A stretch of 64,000 bases of DNA from Chiloscyllium plagiosum (lineage: Eukaryota): contig NC_057758.1 of assembly GCF_004010195.1 (NCBI RefSeq), positions 4,516,793-4,580,792 on the forward strand, written 5' to 3'. The translations under genes were made by a program, and so were the position numbers. The notes beneath the pieces are model-generated. The model worked only from the letters and a program-made list of their open reading frames with translations, was not told the origin of the DNA and made no database searches. Position 1 is the stretch's first letter. Every line of letters begins with the position of its first letter. Positions 16,331-40,415 of this stretch are shown piece after piece.

Positions 16331-16440
16331 CAATTGCCCGTAGTGTTAGGTAAGGGGTAAATGTAGGGGTATGGGTGGGTGGCGGGTCGGTGTGGACTTG
16401 TTGGGCCGAAGGGCCTGTTTCCACACTGTAAGTAATCTAA
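16331..16440 (+). mobile_element. 5'-truncated HE1-like SINE
   Basis: AATTGCCCGTAGTGTTAGG...GGGCCTGTTTCCACACTGTAAGTAATCT repeats the 3' part of the SINE at 15799. Copies at 40611-40720 and 44533-44642. Confidence 0.85.
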
Positions 16441-16764: not shown

Positions 16765-16978
16765 GAGAAAGTAGAGGAATGCAGATGCTGGAGATCAGAA
16801 TGGACAGATTGGTGCCGAAAACGCATAGCAGATCAGGCAGCAGACAAAAAGCAGCAGAATCCAATTTTCAGTCAAACGCCTTTCCTGATGATCCGCAGTC
16901 TTGATGAAGGGTTTTACCCGAAACCTCAATTCTCCTGCTCCTCGGATGCTGCCTAATGTACTGTGTGTTTCCAGCATT
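16765..16978. mobile_element. Inverted pair of Penelope-type terminal repeats
   Basis: Left arm GCAGATGCTGGAGATCAGA...TCAGGCAGCA... faces right arm TTGATGAAGGGTTTTACCCGAAAC...GGATGCTGCCT...TTTCCAGCA. Copies at ~44967-45180 and, partially, 41033-41099. Confidence 0.6.
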
Positions 16979-17544
16979 AGTCAATCGGCTATCGATTTCA
17001 GATGTACTTTCGACCTGTACAGGTGGTCAAGATGTATCAACCCAGTGTCAAACTTTTCAGGAAGTCCACATAAATGTGTTAAGAGGTGGATTGTCTTGAA
17101 TAAGAGGACAAAGCTTTGGAATTCACAAAAGTTATCGAAATCTACCTTTAACTGTGATTGCCCAGAGCAGAAGAAAGGACACGGTGGTTTGAATGATGTA
17201 ATCATGATTCTCCAGGCATCATATTGTGATGTTGCAGCTTTTCGTTACTCTTCAGAATATTCATCAGTAGAGAACATTGATAGGCTACACTACTGTCGAA
17301 TTCATTTCCAGCTGAGTAAGTCTAATCTGTGCTATTCATGGGACTCAACGCATTTGTGGACGGGTCATACATTATTTGATCACAAGATGAGACATATAAT
17401 ATTTTTGGAAGAGGGAACAGATGTTCAACGTCACATTACCTCGATTTGTTCATATCGGTTGGAAAGTCATAATCTGACTGGCTTCCTTTCACAAAATGCT
17501 TATTTTTAGAAATCGTTATATATAACTTCGATCGTTGCAATACA

Positions 17545-19325
17545 CAATAGACAATAGGTGCAGGAGCAGGCCATTCTGCCCTTCGAGCCTGCACCACCAC
17601 TCATTATGATCATGGCTGATCATCCTCAATCAGTATCCTGTTCCTGCCTTATCTCCATAACCCTTGATTCCACTATCATTGAGAGCTCTCTCCAATTCGT
17701 TCTTAAACAAATCCAGAGACTGGGCCTCCAATTCCTTCTGGGGCAGAGCATTCCACACAGTCACCACTCTCTGGGTGAAGAAGTTTCTACTCATCTCTGT
17801 CCTAAATGGCCTTCCCCCTTATTTTTAAGCTGTGTCCTCTTGTTCGGGACTCACCCATCAACGGAAACATGTTTCCTGACTCCAGAGTGTCCAATCCTTT
17901 AATAATCTTATATGTCTCAATCAGATCCACTCTCATTCGTCGAAACCCAAGGGTGTACAAGCCCAGTCCTCCAATTTTTCAACATAAGATAGTCACGCCA
18001 TTCCAGGAATTGACATCATGAACCAACGCTGCACTCCTCAATAGTCAGAATGTCTTTCCTCAAATTTGGAGACCAGAACTGCACACAATATTCCAGGTGC
18101 GGTCTCACCAGGGCCCTGTACAGCTGCAGAAGAACGTCTTTACTTCGATACTCAATCCCTCTTGTTATGAAGGCCAGCATGCTATTAGCTTTCTTCCCTA
18201 CCTTCTGTACCTGCATGCTTACCTTCATTGAATGGTGTACAAGAACAACCAGATCTCTTTGTCATGCCCCTTTACCTAACCTGACTGCTTTTAGGTAGTA
18301 ATCTGCTTTCCTGTTCTTACCACCAAAGTGGATAACCATAAATTTATCCACACTAAACTGCATCTGCCATGCATCTGTCCACGAACCTAACCTGTCCATG
18401 TCACCCTGTAATCTCCTAAAATCCTCCTCACATTTCACCCTGACACCCAGCTTTGTATCATCAGAAAATTTGCTAATGTTACTATTAATACCATCTTCTA
18501 TATCATTAATGCATATTGTAATAAGCTGTTGTCCCAGCACTGATCCCTGCGGTACCGCACTGGTCACCGCCTGCCATTCCAAAAGGGAGCCGTTTATCAC
18601 TACTCTTTGCTTCCTGTCCAGCCAACCAATTTTCAATCCAAGTCAGTACTTTGCCCCCAATTCCATGCACCCTAATTTTGCTCACTAACCTCCTACGTGG
18701 GACTTCATCAAAGGCTTTCTGAAAGTCCAGGTACACCACATCCACTGGATCTCCCTTGTCCATCTTCAGTGTTACATCCTCAAAGAATTCCAGAAGATTA
18801 GTCAAGCATGATTTCCCCTTCATAAATCAATGCTGACTCTGATATATCCTGTTACTGCTCGCCAGATGTGTCGTAATTTCATCCTTTATAATTGGCTCCA
18901 GCATCTTTCCCAGCACTGAGGTCAGCCTAACTGGTCTATAATTTCCTGATTTCTCTCTCGCTCCTTTCTTAAAAAAGTGGTACAACATTAGACACCCTCC
19001 AATCCACAGGAACCGATCCCGAATCTATCGAACTCTGGAAAATAATCACCAACGCATCCACAATTTCTAGAGCCACCTCCTTCAGTACCCTGGGATGCAG
19101 ACCATCAGGCCTCGGGGACTTATCAGCCTTCAGATCTAACAGTCTCTCCAACACCAATTCCTGGCAAATATAAATTCCCTTCAGTTCAGGACCTTCAGCC
19201 ACTGTTACCTCTGGGAGATTGCTTGTGTCTTCCCCAGTGGGCAGAGATCTGAAGTACCAATTCAATTCTTCTGCCATTTCTTTGTTCCCCGTAATATATT
19301 CCCCGGTTTCTGTCTGCAAGTTCAA
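17545..19325 (-). mobile_element. 5'-truncated CR1 LINE (ORF2 RT and 3' UTR), relatively young
   Basis: Minus-strand KSPRPDGLHPRVLKE, KGKSCLTNLLEFFEDVT...VYLDFQKAFD, VPQGSVLG...KFSDDTKLG and LYRALVRPHLEYCVQFWSP, with frameshifts. Paralogous pieces at 41413-42929, 45755-46233 and 47088-47286. Confidence 0.93.
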
Positions 19326-20041
19326 CTAATGTTTTCAGCGAGTCCCTATCTCGCATTCATATATTCCCGTTGACATATTCCATGCAGTTTCTTAAATTAT
19401 TCAATATTATTTCAAACATTGAATGATTTACCGGATGAATTACATGTTCCACCAAATACATTGGAGGGAATATTATTCAGTGCTGTATTTTATACCTTGA
19501 CCTCTTCAGGCTGTGATTATCACTGATGAACATTTACAAATCTGTTCCGCACAATTACTATAGAAGGTTCGACGTCTGTGCCCAATGCTCCAGTTTTTAG
19601 TGTCATTAGTTACTGCAGACATTCCGCGACTGTTACACAAATCGGTTGTATATCTTCTAAAATGCACAAATCATCCTGCTCCAATCGACATTGGGGAGCA
19701 AGTGGTTAACTGAACCTGTTTGTTCTGAGACTAATTAATGTTAGCTTATTTTGCTCATTACCATATTCAAGGCTTTATCGTCAGCCGCCAAGAATGTGAA
19801 AAACACACGGTAGGCTTCTGACTTTCTATTAATAGCGTATTTCCCTCAATCTACGACCAATTTCGAGCAAACTGGGAACTGTGAATCCAAAAAGAAGAAG
19901 AGGCCATTCGGAGTGAAGTTTGAATCCTCCACCAATTGAACAATACCTAATGCAACAGATATAAATATTTTCATAATAGATGAGAAGCGGCATTTGAATG
20001 TGACAGAAGTGGATGATACTCCATGAAGAGTGATTTGGGAG

Positions 20042-20231
20042 ATGATCACAACGGATCTCAATATGACAACCTTAAGTCAGAATGTGATAATCATCAACAG
20101 GAGCTTATACTATGCAGTTCACGTACTTTCCACACGTTATGACAAACTAGCAATAAATTGGCGAGTATATTACAGTCTTCGAATTATACAAGCAGGATAT
20201 TATCCAATGCTGGCAATTGTTGGTCTCCCTG
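20042..20231 (+). pseudogene. GPR139-like GPCR copy A, coding exon 1 (intact exon 1a)
   Basis: ATG at 20042 gives MITTDLNMTTLSQNVIIINRSL...IIQAGYYPMLAIVGLP, with N-glycosylation sequons (NMT, NRS) and the start of TM1. Canonical donor G|GTGAGT at 20231/20232, phase 1. Confidence 0.85.
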
Positions 20232-21477
20232 GTGAGTCAATTTATCTGTTTTCCTTTATCTCTTAAGTCTGTGAGACGTTTATATCTACAAAACATTAGA
20301 AATCTGAGCAGGTCAAGTTCAATGGTTTCAATCTAGTTTTAAAATGCTCCTCGCTGGAGACAGTCTGAACTGCACATGAATCAATATTCTAGCATAAACC
20401 CTCAATGCATTAGACTTGTTCATCCAGATATTTCTAACCAATCTGCTTAAATATGTCATTCTCTATCTCTCAAGGAGTTAGGATTTGAATGCGTGTGTTC
20501 TGGCTCCGATGTTGGAATCTAACTGTACATCACAGGAGACATGATCGGATATCCATTTCAACAAAAACTTCGCGCATTCACTCTCGAATGATATACCACA
20601 CATTCAAATCTCAATTATTCCATGCACATCTGCGGACGTCATCTGGCAAAGCAATTGAACATCACTAATATTTAACCATAGTTTTCCCCGTTCGAGTTCT
20701 CAATTTAAAATCTAACCAGCTCGTATATATTGCATCTCTCCAAAGTAACATCCCGAAATAAATCAATCAACACCTCACAGTAGGTCAGACATTTTATCAT
20801 GTTTTTGTTTATTTTGCGAATTTTCATTTGACTCAAAAAATCTGCTATTCCTCCCTTCGCTGATCATGTCATTGCCGAACTGATTTGAACATTTATCTTA
20901 AGGCAGAATGTTTGTAAAGTATAGGCAACATCGTATGAATGAAGACTTATATGGATTGAGTCAGTGGTTGCACTTTTAAAATGCAATCTTCACACTGTCC
21001 CAGTCATAGTGCAGTGTAAAGATTGGATCCTTGTACATGACAAATGTATCACACAAATCATTATTGTACTTATGTAATTGTGAAATTTCATGCCATCAAC
21101 CCGGCGCCTAACTCTCGGTAGTGTCAATCCTCTAATAATTTGTTCAGCCTCCAAAATTTTCCATATGCCCCTAATTTGTCTTGCTGAACCTATTTGTAAT
21201 AGTGCTCTATATTTTGCGCTGACCATAATTTTAGTGAATGGAACAACTACTGAATGCAATGCTGTCCAGGTCAGAAACTGGGAGTTGGTCCAGGTTGCCC
21301 AGGCAGCCGCTGCCACAGATGTTGTTGTGCTGTGGACAACACGATTCATCCCTGTCAATGTTACTTGTTTTATTCGAATATTTTCGATGATATTATTCTA
21401 ATTGCTTATGTATGATGTTTTGGACTCGAGGGTACTGAGGATTTCGGAAGAATACTCCAATTTAAGTTAAAACCTTG

Positions 21478-21915
21478 GAACATAGAACATAGAACATTAG
21501 AGCGCAATACAGGTCCTCCAACCATCGATTTTGCGCCGACCCGTGGAAACAATCTGAAGCCTATCTATCCTACACGGTTCAATTTTCCTCCATATGTTTA
21601 TCCAATGACAACTTAAATGCCCTTAAAGGTATCGAATCTAATACAGTTGCAGGCTAGAGGTTCCACACCTCTACTTGAGTAAAGAAACTATCTCTGACAT
21701 CCGTCCTGCATCTACCATCTCTCAATTTAATGCTATGTCCCCTCGTGCTAGCCATAACCATCCACGGAAATCTCTCATTTTTACCCAATCTCACCCTCTG
21801 ATTATCTTGTACGTCTCAGGCAAGTCACCTCTCAACCTTCTCTCTCATGAAAACAAAATCAAGTCTCTCAGCCTTTCATCACAAGACCTTTCATCCATAC
21901 CATGCAACAGCCAAA
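21478..21915 (-). mobile_element. CR1 3'-end fragment
   Basis: Begins with CATAGAACATAGAAC, the reverse complement of a CR1-type tail. The duplicate at ~24108-24545 translates as TRGHSIKL...RDSFFTQVEVWNLLP, the CR1 ORF2 C-terminus. Confidence 0.8.
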
Positions 21916-22688
21916 GAAAACCCCTCTGAACCCTTTTTTGTTGCAAACCATGATTTCGTTTTAGATCAATCACAGGAATTCGACAATTTAATGGTTTTAT
22001 CGGTATTTTTTGTTCATCTCTGGTTACCCTTGAGAATGTGTGCAGATGATTGTGTCGACAATGCACACTGCTCCTGTTCAACTATGGTATTCTAGGATGT
22101 GTACGATCGTAGATTTGTTGTCAATCAAGCTGGATGCTTTGTCCTGGATAGCGGCAAGCTTCTTGAATGCTGTAGCTAGTCATTTGAAAAAGAAATGATA
22201 GTCAGAGGTGTGAAACAAACACAGGTAATTTTGGAGAAATTGAAACCTCACTGAGCAGATAAAGGAAGAGATCACATTTCTGGTGATGTGAGCCTTATTC
22301 AGAATGACTCACACTGTCTCATCATACTCCTGACGTATCCCTTGCCGACGGATGAACGACGTTGTGGGAATGCAAACAGTAGGATTCTTAGCTTGTGACT
22401 TGCTCCCGAAGCGCCTACTTGCCAATGACTATTTCCGTCAGTATCTGGTCAATGGCATCCACCAGGATTTTGGTAGCAAGGGTTTCAGTGCTTGTGACTT
22501 CAGCAAATATCAACGGACACTGGTTATGTTGTCTCCTGTTGGTGAGAATCGGAGCTGGTCATTTGTGTGGCAGATAAGTTATTATTTACAACGTATTAGA
22601 TTCAGCACATTGATTTGCCAGGTCTTGGCGCACTTGGCAATGGAATAGTGCATGGCTGCAGACTGAACTTTATTGATTGTTTGGGGAG

Positions 22689-22877
22689 ATGATCACAACG
22701 GATCTCAATATGACAACCTTAAGTCAGAATGTGATAATCATCAACAGGAGCTTCTACTATGCAGTTCACGTACTTTCCACACGTTATGACAAACTAGCAA
22801 TAAATTGGCGAGTATATTACAGTCTTCGAATATACAAGCAGGATATTATCCAATGCTGGCAATTGTTGGTGTCCCTG
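22689..22877 (+). pseudogene. Duplicated exon 1 (1b) of the GPR139-like gene, frameshifted
   Basis: Near-identical to 20042-20231, but CGAATATAC instead of CGAATTATAC (1-bp deletion) and donor GTGACT instead of GTGAGT. Confidence 0.85.
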
Positions 22878-25319
22878 GTGACTCAATTTATCTGTTTTCC
22901 TTTATTTCTTAAGTCTGTGAGACGTTTATATCTGCAAAACATTAGAAATCTGAGCAGGTCAAGTTCAATGGTTTCAATCTAGTTTTAAAATGCTCCTCGC
23001 TGGTGACAGTCTGAACTGCACATGAATCAATATTCTAGCATAAACCCTCAATGCATTAGACATGTTCATCCAGATATTTCTAACCAATCTGCTTAAATAT
23101 GTCATTCTGTACCTCTCAAGGAGTTAGGATTTGAATGCGTGTGTTCTGGCTCCGATGTTGGAATCTAACTGTACATCACAGGAGACATGATCCGATATCC
23201 ATTTCGCCCATTCCCTCTCGAATGATATACCACACATTCAGATCTCATTTATTCCATGCGCATCTGCGGACGTAATCTGGCAAAGCAATTGAACATAACT
23301 AATATTTAACCATATTTTTCCCCGTTCGAGTTCGCAATTTAAAATATAACCAGTTCGTGTATATTGCATCTCTCCAAAGTAACATCCCGAAATAAATCAA
23401 TCAACACCTCACAGTAGGTCAGACATTTTATCATGTTTTTGTTTATTTTGCGAATTTTCATTTGACTCCAAAAATCTGCTATTCCTCCCTTCCCTCATCA
23501 TGTCATTGCCAAACTGATTTGAACATTTATCTTAAGACAGAATGTTTGTAACGTATAGGCAACATCGTATGAATGAAGACTTATACGGATTGACTCAGTG
23601 GTTGCAGTTTTAAAATGCAATCTTCACACTGTCCCAATCATAGTGCAGTGTAAGGATTGGATCCGTGTACATGACAAATGTATCACACAAATCATTATTG
23701 TACTTATGTAATTGTGAAATTTCATGCCATCACCCGGCACCTAACTCTTGGTAGTCTCAATCCTCTAATAATTTGTTCAGCCGCCAAAAATTTCCATATG
23801 CCCCTAATTTGTCTTGCTTAACCTATTTGTAATAGTGCTCTATATTTTGCGCTGACCATAATTTTAGTGAATGCAACAACTGCTGAATGCAATGTCAGGT
23901 CAGAAACTGGGAGATGGTCCAGGTTGCCCAGGCAGCCGCTGCCACAGATGTTGTTGTGCTGTGGACAGCACGATTCATCCCTGTCAATGTTGCTTGTTTT
24001 ATTCAAATATTTTCGATGGTATTATTGAAATTGCTTATGTATGATGTTCTGGACTCGAGAGTACTGAGGATTTCGGAGGAATACTCCAATTTAAGTTAAA
24101 ACCTTGGAACATTGAACATAGAACATTAGAGTGCAATACAGGTCCTCCAACCATCGATTTTGCGCCAACCCGTGGAAACAATCTGAAGCCTATCTATCCT
24201 ACACGGTTCCATTTTCCTCCATATGTTTATCCAATGACAACTTAAATGCCCTGAAAGGTATCGAATCTAATACAGTTGCAGGCAGGAGGTTCCACACCTC
24301 TACTTGAGTAAAGAAACTATCTCTGACATCCGTCCTGCATCTACCATCTCTCAATTTAATGCTATGTCCCCTCGTGCTAGCCATTACCATCCAAGGAAAT
24401 CTCTCATTTTGGCCCTATCTCACCCTCTGATTATCTTGTCCGTCTCAGACAAGTCACCTCTAAACCTTTTTCTCTCTCATGAAAACAGCCTCTCAAGTCT
24501 CTCAGCCTTTCATCACAAGACCTTTCATCCATACCACGCAACAGCCAAAGAAATCCCCTCTGAACCCTTTTTTGTTGCAAACCATGATTTCATTTTAGTT
24601 CAATCAAAGGAATTCGACAATTTAATGGTTTTATCGGTATTTTTGTTCATCTCTGGTTACCCTTGAGAATGTGTGCAGATGATTGTGTCGACGATGCACA
24701 CTGCTCCTGTTCAACAATGGTATTCTAGGATGTGTACGTTCGTAGATTTGTTGTCAATCAAGCTGGATGCTTTGTCCTGGATAGCGGCAAGTTTCTTGAA
24801 TACTGTAGCTAGTCATTTGAAAAAGAAATGATAGTCAGAGGTCTGAAACAAACACAGGTAATTTTGGAGAAATTGAAAACTCAGTGAGCAGATAAAGGAA
24901 GAGATTGCATTTCTGGTGATGTGAGCCTTATTCAGAATGACTCACACTGTCTCATCATACTCTTGACGCATCCCTTGCCGACGGATGAACGACGTTGTGG
25001 AAATGCAAACAGGAAGCAGCTCGCTGTAGGATTCTTAGCTTGTGACTTGCTCCCGAAGCGCCTGCTTGCAAATGGCAATTTCCGTCAGTATCTGGTCAAT
25101 GCCATCCACCAGGATTTTGGTAGCAAGGGATTCAATGCATGTGACTTCAGCAAATATCAACGGACACTGGTTATGTTGTCTCCTGTTGGTGAGAATCGGA
25201 GCTGGTCATTTGTGTGGCAGATAAGTTATTATTTACAACGTATTAGATTCAGCACATTGATTTGCCAGGTCTTGGCGCACTTGGCCATGGAATAGTGCAT
25301 GGCTGCAGACTGAACTTTA

Positions 25320-26505
25320 TTGATTGTTTGTTTGATTTATTGTTGTCACGTACACTGAAATACAGGGAATAGTGTTATTTTGATTTGTATACAACAATAA
25401 ATGCATGAAGGGCCCAGAATTGTGTGCAGAATATCCCAGTGACAGCAAATGCACAGAAAGCGTGGGATCAGAATTAATTTTTTTTGGAGGGGGGATGCGA
25501 TTAATTAAGAATTTCGAATTCAGCGCGGAAAATTTATTCTTAAACATGTTCGTACATGTATTCAACCTTGCTATCTTCTGCCCGACAGAACGGTATGGAA
25601 GTGAGGAAAAGCGGGATGGGATGGGAGTTTGATTATGTCCCTTACTTTCCCGAAGGAACAGGAAGTACAAATGGAGTTTGTGGAGGGAGGACTGGTTTGC
25701 TGGATGACCTTGGTATTGTTCGGAATATTCTTGTGGTGCTGGGAAGACCAGTGGCCAAGCCATGCTGTGAAGCATCGAGGTAGAATTCTTTAAATGGTGG
25801 GTCTATAATAATACACGGGTAACAACCGTGTATTTCGTGAACCTTCTGAGGAAGTAGCGACGTTGTTGTGCATTCGTGACCGTCGCATAGACTTGGATGA
25901 CCAAGGCCTGTTTCTTAGTGTAATCACTCACAGAATCTTGACATTCTCGACCATCTTCAACTTTGCACCACTGATGTAGACAAATGCACGCCCCCTAGTC
26001 CGTTTCCTGAAGTCAATGGCCACTTTTTTTTCATTTTACTGTCATTAATGGAGCAATCGTTGTATTTACATCACGTCACTAAGCACTTAATTTCTTTCTT
26101 GTCTTCTGTATCAGCGTTGTTTGAGAGTAGATCGACAGCGGTGGAGTCGTCAGCAAACCTGTAAATGGAGATTTTTGGAATTTGTCCACACACCTCTGAA
26201 TGCCCGAGGAATATAGTCAAATGCTAGTTTCGCAGTTTTGCAGAGCAACGGTGTGAGATTATGGTGGAGGACGTGCCGTCATCTCTTCTGTTCTATCCGT
26301 TAGAAAGTTAAGGTTTTAGTTACAGCCGGTGGATCTGTGACCTCCTGGTTGAATGTAGAGATGTGTTGGTTTCGAATTATAATGTTGAAGGCAGAAATGT
26401 CATTCAACAATACTATTTTGATGTGGATATGCTTGTTATCCAGATAATCCAGGGATTTGCGTAGGGCCAGAGAAATGGAGTGTATTCTGCACCTGAAGTC
26501 ACCAA
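25320..26505 (-). mobile_element. Rex/Babar-type LINE, 3' half
   Basis: Minus-strand SISLALRKSLDYLDNKH...SAFNII, IYRFADDST (~26140-26166), and TVTKAQQHLYFLRR in copy B (ORF 50340). Copy at ~50020-51214. Confidence 0.8.
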
Positions 26506-27471
26506 AGTAAAAAAGAATATTACAGCACAGGAACAGACCCTCCAACGTTCAACCTACGCCCATGCAGATCTTCTATCTAAACCTATCGCCTGCTTTCTAA
26601 GGATCTATATCCCTCTGCTCCTTGCTCATTCATGTCTCTGTCTCGATACAAAATAAATGACGTCATCGTGCCCGCTCTAACATCTCCGCTGGCAACGCCT
26701 TCCAGGCATCCACCACCCTCTGCAGAAAGATCTTTTCACGCATATCTTCCTGAAATTAATCCCTTCTCACCTTGAAGTCGTGACGACTAGTGTTTGAGTC
26801 CCCCAATCTCGGTAGGACGCTTGTTGCTCTCCATCCTACCGATATTTCTCATGATTTTATAGGCCTCAGTCAGGTCTTCCTCAACCTCTGTCTTCCTAAG
26901 GAAAGTTCTCCTAATCTTCTCNNNNNNNNNNNNNNNNNNNNNNNNNNNNNNNNNNNNNNNNNNNNNNNNNNNNNNNNNNNNNNNNNNNNNNNNNNNNNNN
27001 NNNNNNNNNNNNNNNNNNNNNNNNNNNNNNNNNNNNNNNNNNNNNNNNNNNNNNNNNNNNNNNNNNNNNNNNNNNNNNNNNNNNNNNNNNNNNNNNNNNN
27101 NNNNNNNNNNNNNNNNNNNNNNNNNNNNNNNNNNNNNNNNNNNNNNNNNNNNNNNNNNNNNNNNNNNNNNNNNNNNNNNNNNNNNNNNNNNNNNNNNNNN
27201 NNNNNNNNNNNNNNNNNNNNNNNNNNNNNNNNNNNNNNNNNNNNNNNNNNNNNNNNNNNNNNNNNNNNNNNNNNNNNNNNNNNNNNNNNNNNNNNNNNNN
27301 NNNNNNNNNNNNNNNNNNNNNNNNNNNNNNNNNNNNNNNNNNNNNNNNNNNNNNNNNNNNNNNNNNNNNNNNNNNNNNNNNNNNNNNNNNNNNNNNNNNN
27401 NNNNNNNNNNNNNNNNNNNNNNNNNNNNNNNNNNNNNNNNNNNNNNNNNNNNNNNNNNNNNNNNNNNNNNN

Positions 27472-27712
27472 CCTGCAATCTTCTTCCCGACCTCTCCGCC
27501 CCCCCCCCAGTCTGACCTATCACCCTCACCTTGTCCTCTTTCCACCTATCACATTTCCGGCGCCCCTCCCCCAAGTCCCTCCTCCCTATCTTTTATCTTA
27601 GCCTGCTGGACCAACTTTCCTCATTCCTGAAGAAGGGCTAATGCCCGAAACGTCGATTCTCCTGTTCCCTAGATGCTGCCTGACCTGCTGCGCTTTTCCA
27701 GCAACACATTTC
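27472..27712 (+). mobile_element. Penelope-type terminal fragment inserted in CR1
   Basis: C/T-rich tract, then ATTCCTGAAGAAGGGCTAATGCCCGAAACGTCGATTCTCCTG...GATGCTGCCTGACCTGCTGCGCTTTTCCAGCA. Homologous in reverse orientation to 13810-14000. The 5' part lies in a gap. Confidence 0.75.
27623..27658 (+). ncRNA. Putative minimal type-I hammerhead ribozyme
   Basis: AUUC-CUGAAGA-A-GGGC-UAAU-GCCC-GAAA-CG-UC^GAUU: CUGANGA core (27627-27633), perfect 4-bp stem II, GAAA, minimal stem III, predicted cleavage after 27654, and a short imperfect stem I. Confidence 0.6.
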
Positions 27713-30700
27713 CATCACCAATCTTAGTCTCACCTGCAAACTTGTTACTCAGACCAACTATACTTTCCTGCACATCATTTATATGTATCACAAACAATAG
27801 TGGCCCAGCGCGAATCCTTGTGAAACTCCCTTCTACTATTACTCTCAGTATCCTATTGCCCAACTAGTTCTTTATCCATTTAGCTAATACACCCGAGGAT
27901 CTCATCTGACCTCTCTTTCTTCCACAACTGACCATGGGGAAACTTATCAAATGCCTTACTGAAGTTGATGACGATAATGTTTACAACACTTCATTCATCA
28001 ATCAACTTTGTCACTTCCTCAACAAATTCTCTTAAATTGGTAAGACATGATCTTCCCCGCATAAAACGATGTTGTCTTTCACTGATAAACCCATTTTCTT
28101 CCAACTGTAAATCTTTCCTACTCACAGTATCTTCTCCAGCATCTTCACTGTCACTGGCATCAGGCTGTAGTGACCTGCATTATCCCTTCTACGCATCTTC
28201 AACAAGAGGACAACATTAACATTTCTCCAGTCCTCCGGTACCTCACACTTTTTCAAGAATGATAGTAATGTATCTGATAAGGCTCTCGCTATTTTCCCTC
28301 TCAGTTCCCTCTGTAACTGAGCAGAGATCCTGTTCAGTCTTGGGAGGTTGTCTACCTTTATGCTTTGAGAATACCCAACACTTCCTCGTTCCTTATGTTG
28401 ACATGACCTGGAACATTCAACGATCATTCTCTCTCCTCAACATCCGTCATGTACCTTCCCTCGGTGAATGCCAATGCAAACTCCTCATTAAGATTCTCAT
28501 CCATTTTCTTTGACCACACGTGTAAATTTCCTTCTTTGTCTTTTAGTGGGCTAACCCTTTCACTATTTACTCTCTTGTTCCTTATATATGAATAAAAGGC
28601 CTTTGGATTTTCGTTCACGTGTTAGCCAAAGATATTTCATGATTCTTATTTGCACTCATAATTTCTCCTTTCAGATTAATCCGACCTTCGCCGTGTTCGT
28701 CCAAATTTCTGTCTGTTTTCAGTCGCCTCGACCTTATGTATGCTTTCTTCTTCCTCTGAGTTACTGTCACAATTTGACTTGTGATCTATGGCTCACTAAT
28801 ATTGCCCTTTCTAGTCCTTATTTCCACAGGGCGGTGTCTGTCCTGTACGCTAAGGAACACTGTTTGAAAGCCTCTCACATATCCAAAATGATTTACCTTC
28901 AAATAACTGCACCAATTCAACATTCCCCAGCTCCTGCTGAGTTTTGGTACACGTGGCCTTCTCCTAACTTAGCACTCTTCCTTCAGGACAAACCTTGTCT
29001 TTATCCATTATTATTAAAAACAGAAACATTATGGAATTGAGTCACTATTCCCAAAGTAACCCCCAGTGAAATTTCAACCAGCTGGCTGTACACATTCCCC
29101 AACACCGCTACAGTATGGCCCCTCCTCGAGCTGGACTATACATGTACTGTTCGAGAAGGTTTTCCTGGACGCTCCTTAAAAATTCTGCTCCAGCTCGAAC
29201 TATAAAATTAAGTGAATCCCAGTTAATGCTGTGAAAATTATTGTCTCTAATCACTGTTGTCCGCTTGCTCCTTCAGCTTTGAATAATCTGTTTACATATT
29301 TGTACCACAATCTTACCCTCACTGTTGGGAAGCCTGTACGATTGCTGCAATATTGTTTTCGCTCACTTCTTATTTCTGAGCTCTGCACATATTGCTACAA
29401 TTCTGGATTCCTCAAAGGTACCCTTCTTCAGCACAGGTGTAGCGTCCACTGTGACCAGTAATGCAACTCCTTCACCCCGTTTAAATCAGTCTCTATCCCA
29501 CCTGAAACATTTGTATCCTAGGATATTTAGTTGCCAATCATGCCCTTCCACCAACTAATTCTCAGTAATAGTAAAAATATCATACTCCTGAATAAACAAA
29601 CACTAAGTTCATCTGCCTTACCAATTGCACTTCTCGCCTTAAATCAAAAGCACCTCAGACCACGGGTCCGAATGCGTTCAACGTCTACTCAATGCTTACA
29701 CGTTTAATTCGTCACGTTTACTTCATGATTTAATACCTTGCAGGCTTTATTTTCTACCTTCTTCCTGTCCAGTCACCTCCTCATTTGGTTGCCATGCCCC
29801 GTCACATGAGTTTAACACCTCCCCAACAGCGTTAGCAAAAGCACGCCCAAGGACATTGGTTACAGTTCTGCCCAGGTGCAGACCATACAACTTACAATTA
29901 TGCCACCGCATCCAGAACCGGTCCCAATGTCCCTCTTCCTCCTACACTATCTCTCTCGCCACACATTCATCATGCCTATTGTTTCATTTCATCTCTGACT
30001 AGCACATAGCCATTCTGAGATGACTGGTTCTGAGGTCCTACTTTTTAACTTAGTTCCAAATTCCGTAAGAAATGTATCTACGACCTCATCCCTTACTTTA
30101 CCTACATCACTGGTGTCAATATCTACCATGGTAGCTGGCTGTTTATCCTCCCTTTCAGAAAGATCTGCAGCTGATCTGAGACATCCCTGACCCGTTCATT
30201 GAAAGGCGAGATCCCTTTTCGCAGTCTCTTTATCGAACACAGGAAAGCCTATGTATTTCCCTTGCAATGGATATCCCGATGACTACAGCTCCCCCACTCT
30301 TTGCTCACCTTTCTGTTCAGCAAAGCTGCTGAGACATCTCACCCAACAGTATCCAAAGCGGTATAGCAGATTTAGAGGTAGATGGCCGCAGGGGACACAC
30401 GCTATGCCTTCTTGCTCTTCCTCTGTCTTTTGGGCATCAATACCCTTTATCTCTCAGCAATCCTAATCTGCGGTGGAACCAACTTGCTAAATGTGCTATC
30501 CACGTCCTCCTCAATATTGCAAATGCTCTGAAGTGAGTCCATCAACAGCTCCACAATCGTCTTGTGGTCTGACAAGAGCACAGTTGTACACAAGTCCTTT
30601 ACCTGAAGGACTCAGGAATATCAGCTGCGTCTTTGATCTTTCACATTGACCACGAGGAGCATAACACGGGGCTGAAATTTACTGCTATTTTTAATCGTAA

Positions 30701-30939
30701 GCTTAACTTGGTGCTACTATTATATAAAACAATAGATAAATGTTAAAAAAAACACAAGTTAGAATCATACGACATCATAGGAAAGAGAAAAGACTTACCT
30801 TATGAACACATCGCAGAGTTCTCTTCTCTGTCTCAAGATGAGGGTGGGTGGGAAAAACTACACCTGTAGTGTCCATGGTTCAGTCAATGCCGAATTGCGT
30901 CATGTCACTCCGATTTACAAAGTGCTGTTCGTCGGCTCC

Positions 30940-32530
30940 CATTGAGCTCCCACTGCTACTGAAAATGGAGGCCGTTGACGCTGGCGGTAAGTCCTTTCAG
31001 ACGGTTCACTCCGCACTCTTGTTGCTGCTGAAAATGAACTCTGCTGACTCGGATAAGTCCTTCCAAACAAAAACTTATCTGCTCGGCAACCTCCTGGTCC
31101 TCGTCCTCAGCATTCCAGTTGCTGCTAAAAATTGGAGACTGCTATCTGTGGGCGACACAATGGCTCAGTGGTTAGCTCTGCTCCCTCACAGCGCAAGGGG
31201 TCCACGATCAGTTCCCGCCTCAGGCAACTGTCTGTGTGGATTTTGCATATTCGTGGGCACTGGGTACTCTGGTTTCTTCCCACAGCCCAAAGATGTGCAG
31301 TTTCGGTGAAATGGTCATGCTAAATTACTCAAAGTGTAAGGTGTAGGGGAATGGCCCTTGGTGGGTTGCTCTTCTGAGGGTCAACGTGTGACCTTCTGGG
31401 CCAAAGGACCTGTTTCCACACTGTAGGTAATCTGATTGGTCCTTTTCGAAGTAGGTTTACCTGACCGGCATTCCACTGATATACAATCTCACAGCTGCCG
31501 CTGCTGCTAAAAGTGTAGGTCACTTACCTTCGTGGTAACACCTTTTAAAGGGAAACTTACATTCCCAGCAGTCACCTGGCCATGGCTCTCTCTGCTTCAG
31601 CTTTTGATGAAGCTGTAGGACGCTGAACCTAGAGGTACCTTCGAGGAAAATTTACATTCCCAGCAGCCCCCTGTCTTTGCTCGCACCCTAACAGCTGCTG
31701 CTGTAACTGGAGGCTGCTGACACTTGAAGTAAGTCTTTTAGTGAGAAATTTACATTCCCAGCAGCCCCCGGTCATTGCTCCCACCCCAACAGCTGCTGCT
31801 GTAACTGGGGGCTGCTGACACTTGAGGTAAGTCTTTTAGTGAGAAATGTACATTCCCAGCAGCGCCCGGCCCTCGCTCTCATCTCTCCCGCTGCTGCTGA
31901 AAATGGAGGCCTCAAAATCTCGTGGAATGTTCTGTTGGAAGGAAACTTTCTTTCGCACAATGCCCTGGTCCTCCAACATACCGCTCCCGTTGCTGCTGAA
32001 AATGCAGGCCGCTGAATCTCGAGGTAAATACTTTTAGAGGTAAACTTTCATTCCTAGCCATACCCTGGTCCTCGATTTTATCCGTCCTGCAGTTGTTGAA
32101 AATGGAGTGAGTCGACTCTTGAGGTAAGTCCTTTCAGACTGAGACTTCCTTCCTGACAACCCCCTGGTCATCCTTCTCACCAGTCCCTCTGCTGCTGGAA
32201 ATGGAGGGCGATGACTCTCTAGGTCAGACATTTCAGAGGGAACGTTGCCTTCCCAGCAGCCCCGGTCCTAGTTCTCAACTCTCTGCCCGCAACTGAAAAT
32301 AGAGTCTGCTGAATCTCCTGTTAAGTCCTTTCAGTGGATAATTGACCTTTTAGTTCCCCCGGTTCTCACCCTCATAGGTCCCGCTCCTGCTGATAATCGA
32401 CAGCGTTGACTCTCGAGATAAGTCCTTTTTGAGGGCAGTTTCCGTCCCAGCAGCCCTCCGGTGCTTGCACTCACCGCTCCCGCTGCTGCTGAAAGTGGAA
32501 GATGCTGACTCTCGAGGTATGTCTTTTTCA
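30940..32530. repeat. Diverged ~98-bp tandem monomer array (~14 units) at the CR1 5' end
   Basis: The GCTGCTGAAAATGGAGGC-like motif recurs near 31701, 31799, 31897, 31996, 32096, 32195, 32293, 32390 and 32489, with further copies near 30959-31125 and 31507-31606. Paralog at ~54410-55997. Confidence 0.85.
31150..31432 (+). mobile_element. HE1-like SINE inserted in the monomer array
   Basis: GGCGACACAATGGCTCAGTGGTTAGC...GGACCTGTTTCCACACTGTAGGTAATCT, with an internal deletion. Copy at ~54620-54902. Confidence 0.85.
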
Positions 32531-33360
32531 GCACATGTCAAACATTCAAGGTAATTTGGTGGGCTGATGTTGGTCAGAATCATGATGAACCCGTCGAAGC
32601 GCTTTCAAATTCCGGAAGTGAGCGGCACCGGGAGGTAGTGTGAAAGGCAAGCTACATGATTTTCCGTTTCCAACAGGTTTGTAGTCGTCTTCTTGAAGTA
32701 GGTGGGGACTTATGATCGTAAAAAGGAGAGGTTAAAGAGGTCTGTGAATATTCCCACAAGGTCGTCAGGAAAGGATCTGAGTGCCTGGCTGTGGATTCCA
32801 TTCAGGCCAGTCGATGTCTGTGAGTCCTCTCTTAAGAAGATCGATCTAACCTTTGCGTAGCCCCCGGTTCTCACCCTCATAGGTCCCGCTCCTGCTGATA
32901 ATCGACAGCGTTGACTCTCGAGATAAGTCCTTTTTGAGGGCAGTTTCCGTCCCAGCAGCCCTCTGTTGCACTCACCCCTCCCGCTGCTGCTGAAAGTGGA
33001 AGATGCTGACTCTCAAGGTATGTCTTTTTCAGCGAATGTCAAACATTCAAGGTAATTTGGTGGGCTGATGTTGGTCAGAATCATGATGAACCCGTCGAAG
33101 CGCTTTCAAATTCCGGAAGTGAGCGGCACCGGGAGGTAGTGTGAAAGGCAAGCGACATGATTTCCCGTTTGCAACAGGTTTGTAGTCGTCTTCTCGAAGT
33201 AGGTGGGGACTTATGATCATGAAAAGGAGAGGTTAAAGAGGTCTGTGAATATTCCCCCAGGTCGTCAGGAAAGGATCTGAGTGCCTGGCTGTGGATTCCA
33301 TTCAGGCCAGTCGATGTCTGTGAGTCCTCTCTTAAGAAGATTGATCTAACATTTGCGGTA
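32350..33360 (+). repeat. ~505-bp tandem duplication (copy A only)
   Basis: CCCCCGGTTCTCACCCTCATAGG occurs at 32356 and 32861, but only once in copy B (~55828). Confidence 0.92.
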
Positions 33361-35000
33361 GGAATCATGGTTGCATTGCAGTCCAGGCTGCTGTGATAAC
33401 AAACTTACAATACTTTGAACTCGTTGTGTTGTGATGTACTCTTGCCCGCGATTCTGTTCAACTTCTTTTGATAGTCTTTGTGTGAAAGTCTTGCCATAAA
33501 TGACGGTGCCCGAGTCAAACTTTGTTTCGTGTTGCCTCTTGCCATCTCCGATGGACTTATGAAGGGCTTACTTGGATTTTCAGTGGATTTCAAAGTTGCT
33601 CGACCTGATCACATTTGATTTGGAATTCAGCGAGGACAGCAACTCCAATTTCTTCCATATTTCCCACATGGTGAAAATTCAGATTACTAACATCAGTACA
33701 CAGTTTTTTTTACACTAATGGCGTCCGTAACGGTAATGGCGTGTTTGCTTAGGTTCAGCACTGAGTGCTTCAATACAGCAAAGTCCACTGATTCTAAGCA
33801 GTCCCGTAATCGCCATCCATTGCCCAGATCAATATTGCACGACTTTCTATATTAGATCCTCATGCGCCAATTCCTTCTTGTCAGCTGGTGATAGGAGTCG
33901 GGGTGGGTTCTGTTGAGCTGGACACAGCCCTGCGATCGAATGCTCAAAAATGCAAACTGCGAATGGGCTGTTAACCGAGAATTGGTGGTTTTATATCTAC
34001 GGTCATGGAAGTTCCTACCTCTGGTGGATCACGAAACATATTGGTAACCCATGTTTAAGGTGCGCCTGATTGAAGTCACCAACAAATAAAACAAAGACCT
34101 CTAAGTATTCTGTCTCAAGATTGTTTGTAACACTGTATGCTTCGTCAAGTGAATTATTCAGTTCAACTCATGTAGGGTGTAGCAGTGATGGCAATTTACC
34201 GTAATATATTATAGCTTGAGGGAGCAGTAATTCGCCAGCATCGCCACGCCTGAGCACTCGAATGATGAGAAGGCATAAGCAACTGGCCGATGTATTACCA
34301 AACAACATCGATCCCTCCATTCAATAAACTGAGAATCCCTCAGGTCGTAATGCCTCGTCAGGTGCAACAGGCATGTCTCTGGAAAACAGAGTGTACAGCA
34401 GTCTCTAACTTCCCTTTGGGAGATGTGTCGAGCTTTCAGGCTGTGTTCATCTTGTGTTCACGATTTTGTATGCTTCCCTGGTGTATATTCAGCCAGGGGG
34501 ATTTGAACCCTCAATATTGAAATCTTACCGGAAGCATCTCCTACGTTTCCTGAATGACAGTTGCTCGTAATCAAACCCGGATGTGCTTGAGTGAAGTCTG
34601 CTCGTCTGGGAGGTAAGTGAAGGGGTCCGGGGACCATTCATGGTCTTGAGCATTCGAGACTGTATTGGGGTACTTTCAGTCAGGCATTCCACGATGTCGG
34701 GTGACAGTATTTCATGTTGCCGTGATGGTTGTGCTTTGGTGCCGTGTTTCTGTGACATCGGACCTGCCACTGTAGCCAGGTTTGGTAGTTCCAATGTGCT
34801 CTTGAGTGCAAGTCTCATGCACGATTCTCTACGATGTCTTGCCCTCGTCTGATCAGCTTGGTATCATTCACCATGGGCTCCGTTCTTTGTCCCAGGCTAA
34901 ATGTAACTAAACTCTGGATTTCCACGAGTACGGCAGGTTTGCAGGAAGATGATAGGCAGTTAATTACCCTGGGCTTCAGATTGCAGAGAGATGGGAAATA
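32530..35000 (-). mobile_element. Rex/Babar-type LINE, 5' half (endonuclease and N-terminal RT)
   Basis: Minus-strand VRSIFLR...TGLNGIHSQALRSFPDDL, KKLNRIAGKSTSQHNEF, RLRDCLESVDF (~33785-33815) and LFVGDFNQAHL (~34055-34087). The 5' boundary is approximate. Copy at ~55998-57970. Confidence 0.72.
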
Positions 35001-35832
35001 AAGCAAAAACAAAGCATTTGTCGCGCATTCCATGCTGATGGGGTCAGGTAAGTATATGAAAGTATCCTTCAATGAGTGTTGTAAACGTGAGTGTTTCAAT
35101 ATGTCGAAGTGTGTTGTTGGTGCCCACTACAGACAGAGTTGGCCGAAGACCCTTTTCTAAGTTGTCACTCTTTTTGGCACAGTGACTCAGAACTGGCAGA
35201 AAATTATGTTCAGTCATTATCTATTGGACCACACTGTCAATCGCATGTTCCAGTATATTCCAACTATATATTCCAAACAAGTTAATGTCGGCAAAATCTT
35301 TGCTTCCCATGCAATATCGTAAGTTGGCTACCACCAATGTGGGCATTGATCTACTTTAGTTCATGAAAAAAAAACAATGGCTTTTTCATGGAAGGTATAT
35401 CCTTGTTTCAGACGTTTACATTTTATACTGATTTTGAAAATTCATCTCCTCCAAGGTCGCCATCACGGGAGCTATTTGCTGACCACTGTTTCGGGGCACC
35501 GGCACTCCCATTTTCTTTTCTGATCCATTTAACATTGATGATGATATATTAAATTTGAAACCTGGAGATGTGGTTCGTTTAAAAACCATCATGAGGAGGA
35601 GGGAGGAATGCTAAATGACTCAATGTCTACTTCAAAAATGTCGGTTTGCCTCGGTTTTAAAAAGCAAATCAGTTTTGCACCCCAACATCCTTCTTTAAAA
35701 TAAAGAAACCTTAATTTGAATAATTTTACGGCACCACATGGAAGAGTTGCATTTGTAGAGAGTCCAAGAAATAATAATTCAAAGTTGATGCAAACATTGT
35801 TTTCACCCTCTGCGTTTACGTTCCACTAACAG

Positions 35833-36832
35833 TTAACATACTGCCTGTTGTGATTCTGCGTCGTCAACAATGTGGTCTCTCCAAATGTACCACACGATAC
35901 ATGGCGGCCATGGTGGTGACGGACCTACTTGTCATGATCTTCGACCTGATACTAAGATTCTACTTGTCGATCACAATCATTTTTATTTCCTGCGGCACAT
36001 CCCAGTGTGCAATCTACATGCAGCAGTGTTCAATTCAGCCACAGATGCATCTGTCTGGTTTACTGTCACTTTTACTTTTGACCGATTTGTGACCATCTCT
36101 TCCATGAAATGGAGACGTACGTATTGCGCTGTAAAGATGGCAGATTTAATTCTTGGGACACTTGGAATACTGTGCTGTTTAAAAAACTTCAGCTGGTATT
36201 TTATGCTGACTGGTTCCTACCGATTGTGGAACATCCCGTGGTTTTGTGTCATGGCAAAGGAAGTTCGATTCTCTCTGTTCTGGACAGCGGTAGAGTTCTT
36301 GCATCATGTTCTATCGCTGGTCGTTCCATTCGTTCTTATTGTGCTGCTGAATGTTTTCACTATCAGACAGGTGTTAGTGAGCAACCGAAAACGCAAAAGG
36401 CTCCGGGCTCATAGAATTTGGAATAGTGGTGGACATTCCAAGGGAGAGAGTCGGAGGAAATCTGTTATCTTCCTGTTTGTTATCTCGGGAAATTTCGTCC
36501 TGTCACGTGCGTTGATGACCTTGTTTTGTTTGTGGAAACGGATTTCTAGCTTCGGTTATAAGATAATATCATTACCTTATTTTCTTCTTGAACTGAGCTT
36601 CATTCTGCAAATCTCAGGCTGCTGCACAAACACTTGTGTTTATGCTATTATTCAATCAAAGTGCAATTTTTTGCCAAATCGTTCCAAAGAGCAGAACAAC
36701 TGCATCTACATGACATTTGTTCAGACGTTCATGAAGATTGCTCACCACATCCAACTGTATCATCGTTGTTCAAATACTTATACTCATATTTCCTTAATAA
36801 ATAAGAAAAATATGTTTGGCTCATCAAATTAA
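35833..36832 (+). pseudogene. GPR139-like class A GPCR copy A, exon 2 (4-bp frameshift, chimeric C-terminus)
   Basis: Acceptor TTCCACTAACAG| at 35832. Splicing to exon 1a gives ...VGLP-V-NILPVVILRRQQCGLSKCTTRYMAAMVVTDLL. Later motifs are TDASVWFTVTFTFDRF (TM3), PFVLIVLLN (TM5), ESRRKSVIFLF (TM6) and CCTNTCVY (TM7). A 4-bp deletion near 35957 (CACA present in copy B) shifts the frame. Confidence 0.88.
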
Positions 36833-38154
36833 ATTGACAGCATTATACAGGGAACTTAAGTCTAACCTTGTAAACACAACCTATGTCACTTTTTGGTCGA
36901 TTATCGGTAACTTGAATTGCTCAAGATGATTCGACGTCATGTACTGCAAAGTGTGAAATTCAAAGACAACATGTTTATTACTGGTGTGCATACAATTCAC
37001 GTAGGTAGTAGCGAAATATCCAAATGCAGTTATCAAAAAAGCTTACTTTCGTTATAGTTGACCAATTTCATTGTATGGATTATTCTGCCCCCGACCTCCA
37101 CTTTTAAGTTCGGAGATCAATGCAAAATGTAATGATCTCATGCCCTTTGCTTACCCTGATCTGAGCTTCGTCATCCACGTCTCCTCATCACAAATATCAT
37201 ATAAATCCCGCTGTGATTTCTTGTTCGTGAGTGAACAAGATTGTAGTTCCCTTTATCCTCTCATTTGCATTCGTGTATTTTCTTTACTGTTTACTCCACT
37301 GTGCAACTCAGTCAAAGTGCTGTTCCACACCAAATGCAGCAAATCACTTAACTGGTTTTCAAATTATGTAGTGACTCACGCAGCCTGCTGTGCATCACTG
37401 ACAAAGTAACATTAAAACATTTCAAACAGATTGGTCATGATGGGGAGTCTTCCCTCAAGTATCTCACAGCTAGCTATGTATTCCAGCACAGCTCCAACTC
37501 GAGACTCTATCCGAAAATGCAGAAACTCGCCAAGGTTTACCTTCTGCACAAAGGCAAATCCAAGATAGCCGACAGTGCAATCAAGCAGCAAGTGCTCAGA
37601 AATAATCTGATTAGTAACGCCCCCTTTGGGTTCCACCAAGACAAATCTGTTCTTAACCTCACTGCAACTTTCGTTGAATCATGGACAAAGGAACGAAATT
37701 CTAGTGGTGATGTGACATCAGTCCTTGTCATCAAGGCCGCATGGAACTAGGTGTGGTATCAAGGAGCTGTATTATAACTGGAATCAATGTTTATCAGGGA
37801 TTAAATATCCAGTGCTTGAAGCCATATCTGGCACAGAAGATTATAGTCATGCTGGCGCTCTGTCATCCCACCTCCACGTTATTTCTTACGAAATTCCACA
37901 GAGAAGCGTCCTCTGCCAAACAACATTCAGTTGCTTCATCAGTGGCCTTCCCTTTATCACTAGATCCGAAGTGAGGATGTTCACTGTTGTAGGCACAATG
38001 TTCAACACAATTCACGAGTTCACATATACTGACACAGTCCATGCTGAAATGTAAGGGGACCTGGGCAATAACGAGGGATGGGCTGACAACTGACAGGCAA
38101 TATTTGCGCAATGCAAATGCGAGGCTCTGACGATCAGTGTCAAAATGTTCGGGG

Positions 38155-39635
38155 TTGGTAAAACAGCCATCAGGCAGCATCCAGGAGTGGGAGAGTCGAA
38201 GTTCCAAGCATATTTTCTTCATCAGGAATGTGAGGAGACCCAAGGGAGCTGAGAGATCAATGGTTGGGGGTGCACTGGATGTGAAGTAGCTGGGAATGCA
38301 ATAGGTAATAGAAGCTTGCGGCGTGATTGTGTAAGATTCGAGTGGTGGGTAGACTAGGTGGAATGGAAGGAAGATGTACAGGCAGGACAGTCCAAGAAGG
38401 TGGCACGAATTTATTGGGCTGAATTTGGGATGAGGTGGGTGAGGACAGAATAAGAAACTGGTGAAATCGACGTCCATCCCACGTAGTTGGAAAGTCCAAA
38501 GGTGGACCGTGAGTATGTTTTCCTCCAGTCGGCGGATGGCTGGAATCTGGCACAGGAGGTGGCCAGGGACTTGCATGTGCTTGCCATGGTGGAAGATGGA
38601 GTTGTTTCTTACATGCCTCTCACCGATCTTCTCTGAAACGTTCCACAAGTTGCTGTTCTATCTCCACGATGTTGAGAACACATTGGGAGCAACGGACACA
38701 ATAGATAGCGCGTATTTCGGTTCAGGAAATACTGTGTCACATATGGAAGGATCGTTTGTGGCCTTCGACGGGTGTGCGAGTAAAAGGTGTGGGCACAGGT
38801 TTACACATCTTGCGGTGGCATGAGAACGTGCTGAGAATGAAGGATGAATTGGTGGGGGACATGTACACAACAAGGGACTTGTGGAGCAAATAGTCTGTGT
38901 GGAACACAGAAAAGGGGGGGAGTAAAATATATCGCTGGTGGTTGTGTCAGATTGTAGGTGGCAGAAATGGCGGAGGATGACACGTTGTAATTGAAGGTTG
39001 GTGGCTGCAAAGTGATGACGGAAGGGAGGGGGCAGCGATTCTGTCCTTAATGCGATTGGAGGAATGGGGTACAAGGACGTAGTTATGCGGTGTGGAGGAG
39101 ATGTGATGAATGGGAATGTTGACAATTAAAGGAGGGAAATTGCATTCCTTTAAGAAGGAGTCCATCTGAAACTATGGTCGAATTGGTCCTCTTGGGAGCA
39201 GACAATTTGGAGGTGGCCGAATTGCGAGTCAAGGATAACGTTTTGAAAGGAGGTGTAATCGATGTAGCTTTGGGAGTCTGTGGGTTTGAAGTAGATGTCC
39301 GTGTTGAGTCAGTCGCCATTAACGTGGACTGGACAGGTCCAGGCAGGGTTAGGCGGTGTTCTAAATGAATGAGGTGAACTTGAGATAAGGGTGGAAGTTG
39401 TTCGTGAGATGTTGCAGTGTCAACCACCTCGTGATAGCGCAGGCTGGCGCCAATGCAGTCATCAATGTAGAGGAGGAAATGTTTGTGAATAGTGATGGTG
39501 TTGCTGAGGAAGATGGACTGCTCCACATACACGATGAGGAGGGAGAAATAGCTTAGGCCCAAGCAGGTGCTCACCGCGACCGCTTTCGTCGAGAGGAAAT
39601 GGGAGAATTCGAAGGAGGAATTGTTGAGGATATAA
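38155..39635 (-). mobile_element. Penelope-like retroelement remnant, copy B
   Basis: ORF 39083-39676 has FLLYIDDCIGAS (RT YxDD); paralog of 13810-15345. Confidence 0.75.
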
Positions 39636-40087
39636 TCATCATCCATATGTGTCAATCTGAACACTATCGTAGACATTCATGGTTTTGCCATCACTGAGGT
39701 GTCCATGTAACCACAATGAGGTTACCACTGTCCACAAACTCATGTGAACAAATCACAGAAAGCCAGTGACTGCAAGCTAAGGTCAGAGACTATGAATATT
39801 GCGACGTAGAACTCACCTTCTGACTCCCCAAACCTATCCAACGTCTAAAACTTACAAGCCATGAATGTGATGGAATACTCCCCAATACTTTGGATTAATG
39901 CAGTCCAAACAACATTCAAGATGAATGGCCACATACTTGACAGGGTAATCATTTGATTTGCACTCCATTAACAATACTCGACTCCCTGCACCAGCGACTG
40001 TATACAGTTTGCAAAATGCACAGCAGCAATGAACCAGAGATCCTTAGAGAGGGCTTTTCCTACCCTCAGCTACTTGTATTCGAATGT

Positions 40088-40415
40088 GGGGGGCACAGTG
40101 GTTAGCACTGCTGCCTCACAGCGCCAGAGACCCGGGTTCAATTCCCGCATCAGGCGACTGTCTGTGTGGCGTTTGCACGTTCTCGCCGTGACTGCATGGG
40201 TTTCCTCCGGGTCCTCCGGTTTTCTCCACAGTCCAAAGATGTGCAGGTCAGGTGAATTGGCCATGCTAAATTGCCCGTAGTGTTAGGAAAGGGGTAAATG
40301 TATGGGTGGGTTACGCTTTGGCGGGTCGGTGTGGACTTGTTGGGCCGAAGGGCCTGTTTCCACACTGTAATGTAATAAAAAAAGTAATCTAATGTAATCT
40401 AATCTAATCGAATAA
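40088..40415 (+). mobile_element. HE1-like SINE (copy B)
   Basis: Paralog of 15799-16135. Confidence 0.88.

Follow-up and report, generated by a model that had tools for sequence, protein, structure and literature searches.

A 64,000-nucleotide stretch of the genome of Chiloscyllium plagiosum (positions 4,516,793 to 4,580,792 of the forward strand of contig NC_057758.1, assembly GCF_004010195.1; hereafter the window, in whose own positions all coordinates are given) carries a two-exon locus of a G protein-coupled receptor (GPCR), which we call copy A. An earlier note, made from the sequence alone, had described it as a hidden GPR139-like gene with a very large intron. Coding exon 1 (20042..20231, plus strand, like all features below unless stated) covers the N-terminus and the first half of the first transmembrane helix (TM1). 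It starts with the ATG at 20042 and is open up to G20231, where a GTGAGT donor follows. Exon 2 (35833..36662) begins directly after the acceptor CTAACAG and runs from the second half of TM1 to the start of helix 8. The phase-1 intron between them (20232..35832) measures 15,601 bp, including a gap of 550 N at 26922-27471, and the intron of human GPR139 presumably falls at the same codon. The join reads ...YYPMLAIVGLP-V-NILPVVILRRQQCGLSKC. On the two exons, the splice sites, the join, and an intron of 15.6 kb, we agree with the earlier note.

We searched for homologues using exon 2 as a query and found 558 proteins at an E-value of 1e-10 or better, among 964 candidates; the counts given below are over the best 120 of these 558. 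The exon join is not due to chance, because 69 of the 120 homologues match exon 1 in the splice-join frame (tblastn). The paralogues thus share this first exon and the position of the intron, as judged from protein models and not from genomic DNA. In database protein models without exon 1, the sequence departs from the others immediately ahead of the asparagine of TM1 (N1.50). The gene had been thought invisible among the open reading frames (ORFs), and it is only partly hidden: a stop-to-stop ORF of 331 amino acids (35837-36832, standard code) is listed. The ORF 35840-36829 matches the hidden Markov model 7tm_1 (E 1.4e-8, 35 bits, above the gathering cutoff of 30.5), which identifies a class A GPCR; intact homologues match the same model at 61-73 bits in six cases out of six. 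The DRF and TNTCVY motifs singled out previously are present, at 36080-36088 and 36626-36643, in a frame that differs from that of the splice join. They are not special to the locus, since DRF is found in 108 of the 120 homologues and TNT[CA]IY in 98.

In the assembly, copy A does not encode the intact working receptor that had been assumed. Compared with the other exon 2 of the window (copy C, see below), it is missing 4 bases after 35956, at a site that 109/120 homologues read across with an LRHIP-type motif. The deletion shifts the spliced frame, which meets a premature TGA at 36090, leaving a product of 149 amino acids. Rescue by a downstream ATG was rejected: beyond the deletion, the frame offers no ATG before 36104, which is already past TM3, and a protein started there would lack three helices. 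At the other end, receptor homology stops at 36662, after QSK, because the junction of a tandem duplication falls at 36662/36663 and cuts off the rest of helix 8. At this point 111 of the 120 homologues have QxxFRxQ, and most end 27-28 residues past the TM7 tyrosine. Past the junction, the frame reads through 56 codons of sequence that is not homologous to receptors (36663..36832). A tail of this length is open by chance with a probability of about 0.03, and AATAAA/ATTAAA follow at 36796 and 36828. The remaining receptor sequence is also unusual: tryptophan 6.48, present in 119/120 homologues, is an arginine in copies A and C, and copy A has an asparagine at 3.33 and has lost the DPEM motif of the third intracellular loop (ICL3). 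Of the 149 columns that it covers and whose conservation reaches 90% or more, copy A departs from 42 (28%), whereas the homologues do so in a median of 2.5% and at most 10.8% of the columns.

Following a satellite and a gap of 500 N, the window consists of two head-to-tail units of ~23-24 kb each that are 2.4-3.3% diverged. Unit 1 (12498..36662) has its true start within the 500-N gap before 12498, and unit 2 (36663..59638) contains four N gaps. The earlier view of a single locus holds for the exons of copy A and overlooked two more copies of exon 1 (at 22689 and 48002) and a second exon 2 (at 58805). Copy B is an extra exon 1 inside the intron of copy A (22689..22877), with a 1-bp deletion near 22832, and belongs to a 2.65-kb tandem duplication within that intron (20028-22683 / 22675-25330). 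Copy C has an exon 1 (48002..48190) with a 1-bp deletion identical to that of copy B, and an exon 2 with the native 3' end (58805..59706). The latter carries four lesions—a 1-bp deletion near 59116, a TGA at 59256, a 1-bp insertion at 59499, and a TAG in helix 8 at 59650—making five in total for the copy. Copy B diverges less from C (2.3%) than B or C does from A (3.5%), which suggests gene conversion or unequal crossover. A TATA-like box (TATAAATA, 19960..19967), which may act in a promoter, lies 82 bp 5' of the exon-1 ATG of copy A; it is also found 5' of copy C (47920), and there is none 5' of copy B.

Copies A and C have no lesion in common, so their common ancestor was probably still open. 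Since their duplication, we detected no purifying selection, either in the pN/pS of exon 2 or in the comparison of exon and intron rates. Exon 2 accumulated 23 nonsynonymous changes (one to a stop) and 4 synonymous ones, giving a pN/pS of 1.76 that is compatible with neutrality (p=0.37) and not with an omega of 0.25 (p=2e-5). The substitution rate between A and C is the same in exon 2 (3.26%) and in the intron (3.24%), and indels are no rarer in the exon (3.6/kb, against 2.2-2.7/kb in the intron).

We consider it likely that copy A is an unprocessed pseudogene produced by a head-to-tail duplication, within an elasmobranch "GPR139-like" family descended from a paralogue that amphibians kept. 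A two-exon gene of a fast-evolving branch of this family was duplicated together with ~23-24 kb of its surroundings. The breakpoint fell at the start of helix 8, such that the upstream copy had no C-terminus from the outset. Both copies then drifted neutrally, gaining the separate frameshifts and stops seen in the assembly. Intact members, for their part, are predicted to be seven-helix receptors with conserved cytoplasmic faces and a variable N-terminus and second and third extracellular loops (ECL2 and ECL3). Families of GPCRs evolving by birth and death, such as OR, TAAR, V2R, FPR, and MRGPR, yield unprocessed pseudogenes. These resemble copy A in arising by tandem segmental duplication, in the truncation of a duplicate, and in neutral decay, but they come from other receptor lineages. 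The birth-and-death turnover that the earlier note had proposed is directly visible in the duplicated, decaying copies of the window.

The proposal of a shark-lineage expansion is supported by the family as a whole, which is large and expanded in elasmobranchs. Among the best 120 of the 558 matches, 119 are named elasmobranch proteins, of which 57 are from Heterodontus, 47 from Heptranchias, and 15 from others; the proteins of these two sharks fall in 57 and 47 distinct clusters at 90% identity. The sources label 114 of the 120 as GPR139. Exon 2 of copy A is 48-54% identical to elasmobranch proteins called "probable G-protein coupled receptor 139" in NCBI and UniRef (from Heterodontus, Heptranchias, Scyliorhinus, Chiloscyllium, Rhincodon, Rhinoraja, and other genera). 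The latter share the motifs CGLSKC, FTFDRF, and TNTxIY with the locus but lack its frameshift, truncation, R6.48, loss of DPEM, and long branch. A family profile built from 44 sequences retrieved 135 representatives at 50% clustering (E up to 1e-30). We looked up 30 of these, and 24 were from sharks or rays, with no chimaera among the 30. The other six, all from the low-scoring end, were a salamander, a coelacanth, two teleosts, an amphioxus, and one unnamed sequence. Within the family, variation is highest in the N-terminus, ECL2, and ECL3 (1.6-2.4 bits), whereas TM3 and TM7 are conserved (0.25-0.36 bits). The predicted structure of an intact homologue (P0027) shows seven long helices plus helix 8 (mean predicted local distance difference test score, pLDDT, of 63), and the 50 Foldseek matches listed for it are all class A GPCRs. 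Separately, the bamboo-shark models of one cluster (P0182) have a coiled-coil/RING-type N-terminus attached to a receptor of the family; a neighbouring TRIM-like gene was probably merged into them during annotation.

We found no publication describing this expansion in the open-access literature, subscription journals being largely outside that search, and the parts consulted of the papers on the genomes of whale shark, catshark, and zebra shark do not mention the terms of the family. Its proteins are already in the NCBI annotation, under a misleading name. What is new here is the reading of the locus as a pseudogene pair and the placement of the family's nearest kin among amphibian and GPR210-like receptors instead of GPR139.

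The description as GPR139-like holds in that this is a class A receptor whose best sequence match among solved structures is human GPR139 (E 5.6e-15, 58.5 bits against the family profile), and not some unrelated GPCR; it does not hold in the sense of an expansion of GPR139 itself. Only the profile reached GPR139, as a phmmer search of the window fragment against the solved structures gave no match at E 0.01. The profile scores much higher with other proteins: 169 bits for a salamander (P0233), 159 for the coelacanth (P0238), 143 for a teleost (P0246), and 106.5 for amphioxus (P0260). These relatives are not GPR139 either: the coelacanth protein scores 70 bits against GPR139, and the profiles of the two clades described below score 68.5 and 93.5 bits. 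GPR139 as a singled-out fold match was rejected: in the structural alignments with the P0027 model, it has 23-25% identity and ranks 41 and 48. Human GPR139 (PDB 7vug, 9m42) and GPR142 resemble the family in having no proline at 7.50. In the alignment, human GPR139 has DRY, R6.51, N7x38, and no C3.25, whereas the corresponding residues of the shark family are DRF, L/F, F, and an invariant C3.25. In the part of PMC7318219 consulted, GPR139 is described as a two-exon gene and as highly conserved, with 70% identity between human and zebrafish. The shark family thus appears not to be a set of GPR139 orthologues.

We made a quick IQ-TREE phylogeny of 53 rows, i.e. copy A and 52 sequences hand-chosen from 411 proteins, with supports from the Shimodaira–Hasegawa-like approximate likelihood ratio test (SH-aLRT) only. 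In this tree, from which GPR139 and GPR142 are absent, copy A nests with chondrichthyan paralogues, in a subfamily of 13 rows from sharks and skates (support 100). This subfamily lies within a chondrichthyan clade (92) that is sister to an amphibian clade (99). A separate conserved clade (99) gathers coelacanth, teleosts, amphibians, reptiles, and three sharks. The amphibian group (around P0233) is conserved, contains only frogs, salamanders, and a caecilian among its matches, is labelled GPR139, and is less than 30% identical to the coelacanth relative. It is the candidate sister of the shark expansion. The conserved group (around P0238) includes sharks, sturgeon, teleosts, coelacanth, amphibians, turtles, and squamates, with no bird or mammal among the 120 matches listed. 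Its members are labelled GPR139 or GPR142 and have ERF and an arginine at 6.51. Both clades look low-copy, with mean column identities of 80% for the amphibian and 55% for the conserved one. Rinne et al. 2019 (PMC6504862) reported three GPR210 sets beside GPR139 and GPR142, in coelacanth, gar, and fishes; the part of their text consulted does not contain the word "shark" or describe an expansion. The conserved clade is probably one of these sets. By profile score and tree, the putative GPR210 orphans of coelacanth, gar, and teleosts and the amphibian clade are the nearest relatives outside chondrichthyans. The family would belong to a GPR139/GPR142/GPR210 supergroup and derive from a paralogue that survives in amphibians as a conserved gene.

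Several observations weigh against the reading of copy A as a pseudogene of this descent. The tree is a quick version with no bootstrap, and true GPR139 and GPR142 are not among its rows. None was found by motif among the 411 proteins. A search with an amphioxus query returned nine amphioxus-type proteins and one unnamed, and the best 120 matches of a mixed profile contained none by motif either. The sister group is not settled, since hhalign matches the shark family slightly better to the conserved clade (E 2.7e-41) than to the amphibian one (E 7e-38). The long branch of copy A (0.86) is by itself no proof of decay: because the ancestor of A and C was probably open, most of it would predate the duplication and reflect a fast-evolving lineage. 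Further points come from three DNA sequencing runs (contigs of X1, X2, and X9), which we aligned to 35600-37400 together with one single-cell RNA run. The pieces listed are a part of all, and contigs show presence, not absence. No listed contig of the three runs carries the 4-bp deletion. At 35960, the contigs that account for the entire depth in X1 (16) and X9 (24.2) have the four bases, reading ACAC at 35956, while X2 is represented only by a more distant paralogue. The junction at 36662/36663 is bridged by none of the listed pieces; an X1 match begins exactly at 36663 and has the alleles of the upstream unit at 7 of the 8 sites checked between 36917 and 37275, and X2 and X9 continue past 36662 with normal helix-8 sequence. 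The lesions of copy A may therefore be private, polymorphic, or assembly errors, and an intact allele may exist. The X1 contigs bear both A-type and C-type alleles, including the extra T of C at 36523, so the differences between the two copies are real variants. In addition, 114 of the 171 X1 pieces are less than 95% alike and piled on the conserved TM3, which suggests many paralogues but gives no copy number. The window itself holds two copies, and by such indirect counts nothing pointed to a single-copy family.

These data bear on whether copy A could be a polymorphic pseudogene, broken only in this haplotype and open in other individuals, where it would be either a single gene without duplication or a receptor ending in the new 56-residue tail. 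The ACAC of X1 and X9, the main path of X1, whose mixture of A and C alleles is what an ancestral allele would show, the absence of common lesions, and the open tail with its AATAAA/ATTAAA all fit this explanation. However, the contigs are short and cannot be phased, R6.48 is in both copies, and the A-C divergence is neutral. In the RNA run, two reads aligned to exon 2 and its flanks, both less than 95% alike, so no read reached 95% identity among 12,955,460 records (~2% of one single-cell run). We regard this explanation as unlikely. We give still less credit to an assembly artefact, in which sequence from two haplotypes, or from paralogues that are not linked, was placed in tandem during scaffolding, so that a single intact gene acquired a false junction and a false deletion. 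The window has eight N gaps, and unit 2 contains near-identical blocks out of order: 39923-41099 and 43846-45033 (1.1% apart), and 41413-41862 and 45784-46233. These blocks, ~1% apart and ending at N gaps, may come from a third copy or from the other haplotype, or may result from mis-scaffolding. An artefact would also fit the lack of a listed piece bridging the junction and the finding that X1 has only alleles of the upstream copy at 36917-37275 (7 of the 8 checked). Yet the sequence around the junction is free of gaps from 27472 to 41099, its two sides have no long stretch in common, and copy C is broken too despite its native 3' end. Moreover, the units differ by 134 substitutions against 9 indel events over 4.1 kb, and differences dominated by substitutions are not the usual pattern of long-read errors.

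The earlier note's own version, a working GPR139-type sensor of aromatic amino acids or nutrients, is in our view very improbable. In the part of Nohr et al. 2017 (PMC5430874) consulted, the Trp/Phe site of GPR139 consists of F109, H187, and W241 (hydrophobic) and of N271 and R244 (polar). In the published model, R6.51 and N7x38 bind the amino-acid backbone, and N271A cut the potency of Trp and Phe. An offset of 212 maps all five residues onto the aligned human GPR139 chain. The family keeps the hydrophobic part of this pocket (Y/F3.33 in 114/120, H5.43 in 119/120, and W6.48 in 119/120), which together with the GPR139 structure match and the GPR139 labels speaks for such a sensor. On the other hand, R6.51 and N7x38 are each found in 0/120, so nutrient sensing is unsupported. 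The family has instead D3.37 (120/120) and E7x35 (113/120). Copy A, with N3.33 and R6.48, keeps only H5.43 of the site, and its frameshift and truncation already contradict a working receptor in the assembly.

The window contains other repeated elements. A 36-bp satellite fills positions 1-11991 (~334 copies, 80% matches, GC skew of about -0.47) and is the source of dozens of spurious repeat ORFs. A 26-bp satellite sought 5' of the putative promoter (12498-20100) was not found. The introns of both copies contain a 98-bp minisatellite (31648-31910 and 55116-55378), and a 330-bp segment (21120-21448) close to one boundary of the 2.65-kb duplication within the intron is inverted relative to 49074-49403. 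A frameshifted reverse-transcriptase remnant of a long interspersed nuclear element (LINE; RVT_1, E 6e-7) lies 5' of exon 1 in both units (18262-18826 and 41800-42900, both on the minus strand). Similar LINE pieces are fused to the receptor in some database gene models.

What the intact members of the family bind can be approached from their pockets and relatives. The part consulted of Thiel et al. 2021 (PMC8557429) places deuterostome GPR139/142 as sister to the protostome receptors of W/Y/F-amide peptides. Unlike the shark family, these receptors (MIP, proctolin, RGWamide, FMRFamide, and myosuppressin) have known amidated peptide ligands. Clusters named "FMRFamide receptor-like" are also near the family by Atlas features (0.97-0.98). 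From the sequences, we give an even chance that intact members signal through G proteins and that their ligands are diverse peptides or amines of basic or aromatic character, and not free Trp or Phe. The signal carried by such ligands could be external (chemosensory), microbial (immune), or internal, with about equal plausibility for each, the first being a shade less probable. A broader scenario, doubtful but worth stating, is that sharks and rays have a hundreds-strong chemosensory repertoire whose source was a GPR210-like peptide-receptor paralogue, still a conserved gene in amphibians, and which the automatic GPR139 label has concealed. The locus would then be a rapidly evolving branch, unusual in its R6.48, still open in other animals of the species and caught in the act of duplication and loss.

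In summary, copy A is likely to be an ordinary dead duplicate, and the family to which it belongs matters more than the locus. The GPR139 label is misleading: the closest kin of the family form an amphibian clade and a conserved clade ranging from fish to reptiles. The low-copy relatives in Xenopus and teleosts offer a direct route to the identification of the ligand. If the chemosensory repertoire were real, it would offset the tiny sets of OR, ORA, and TAAR genes of sharks and rays.

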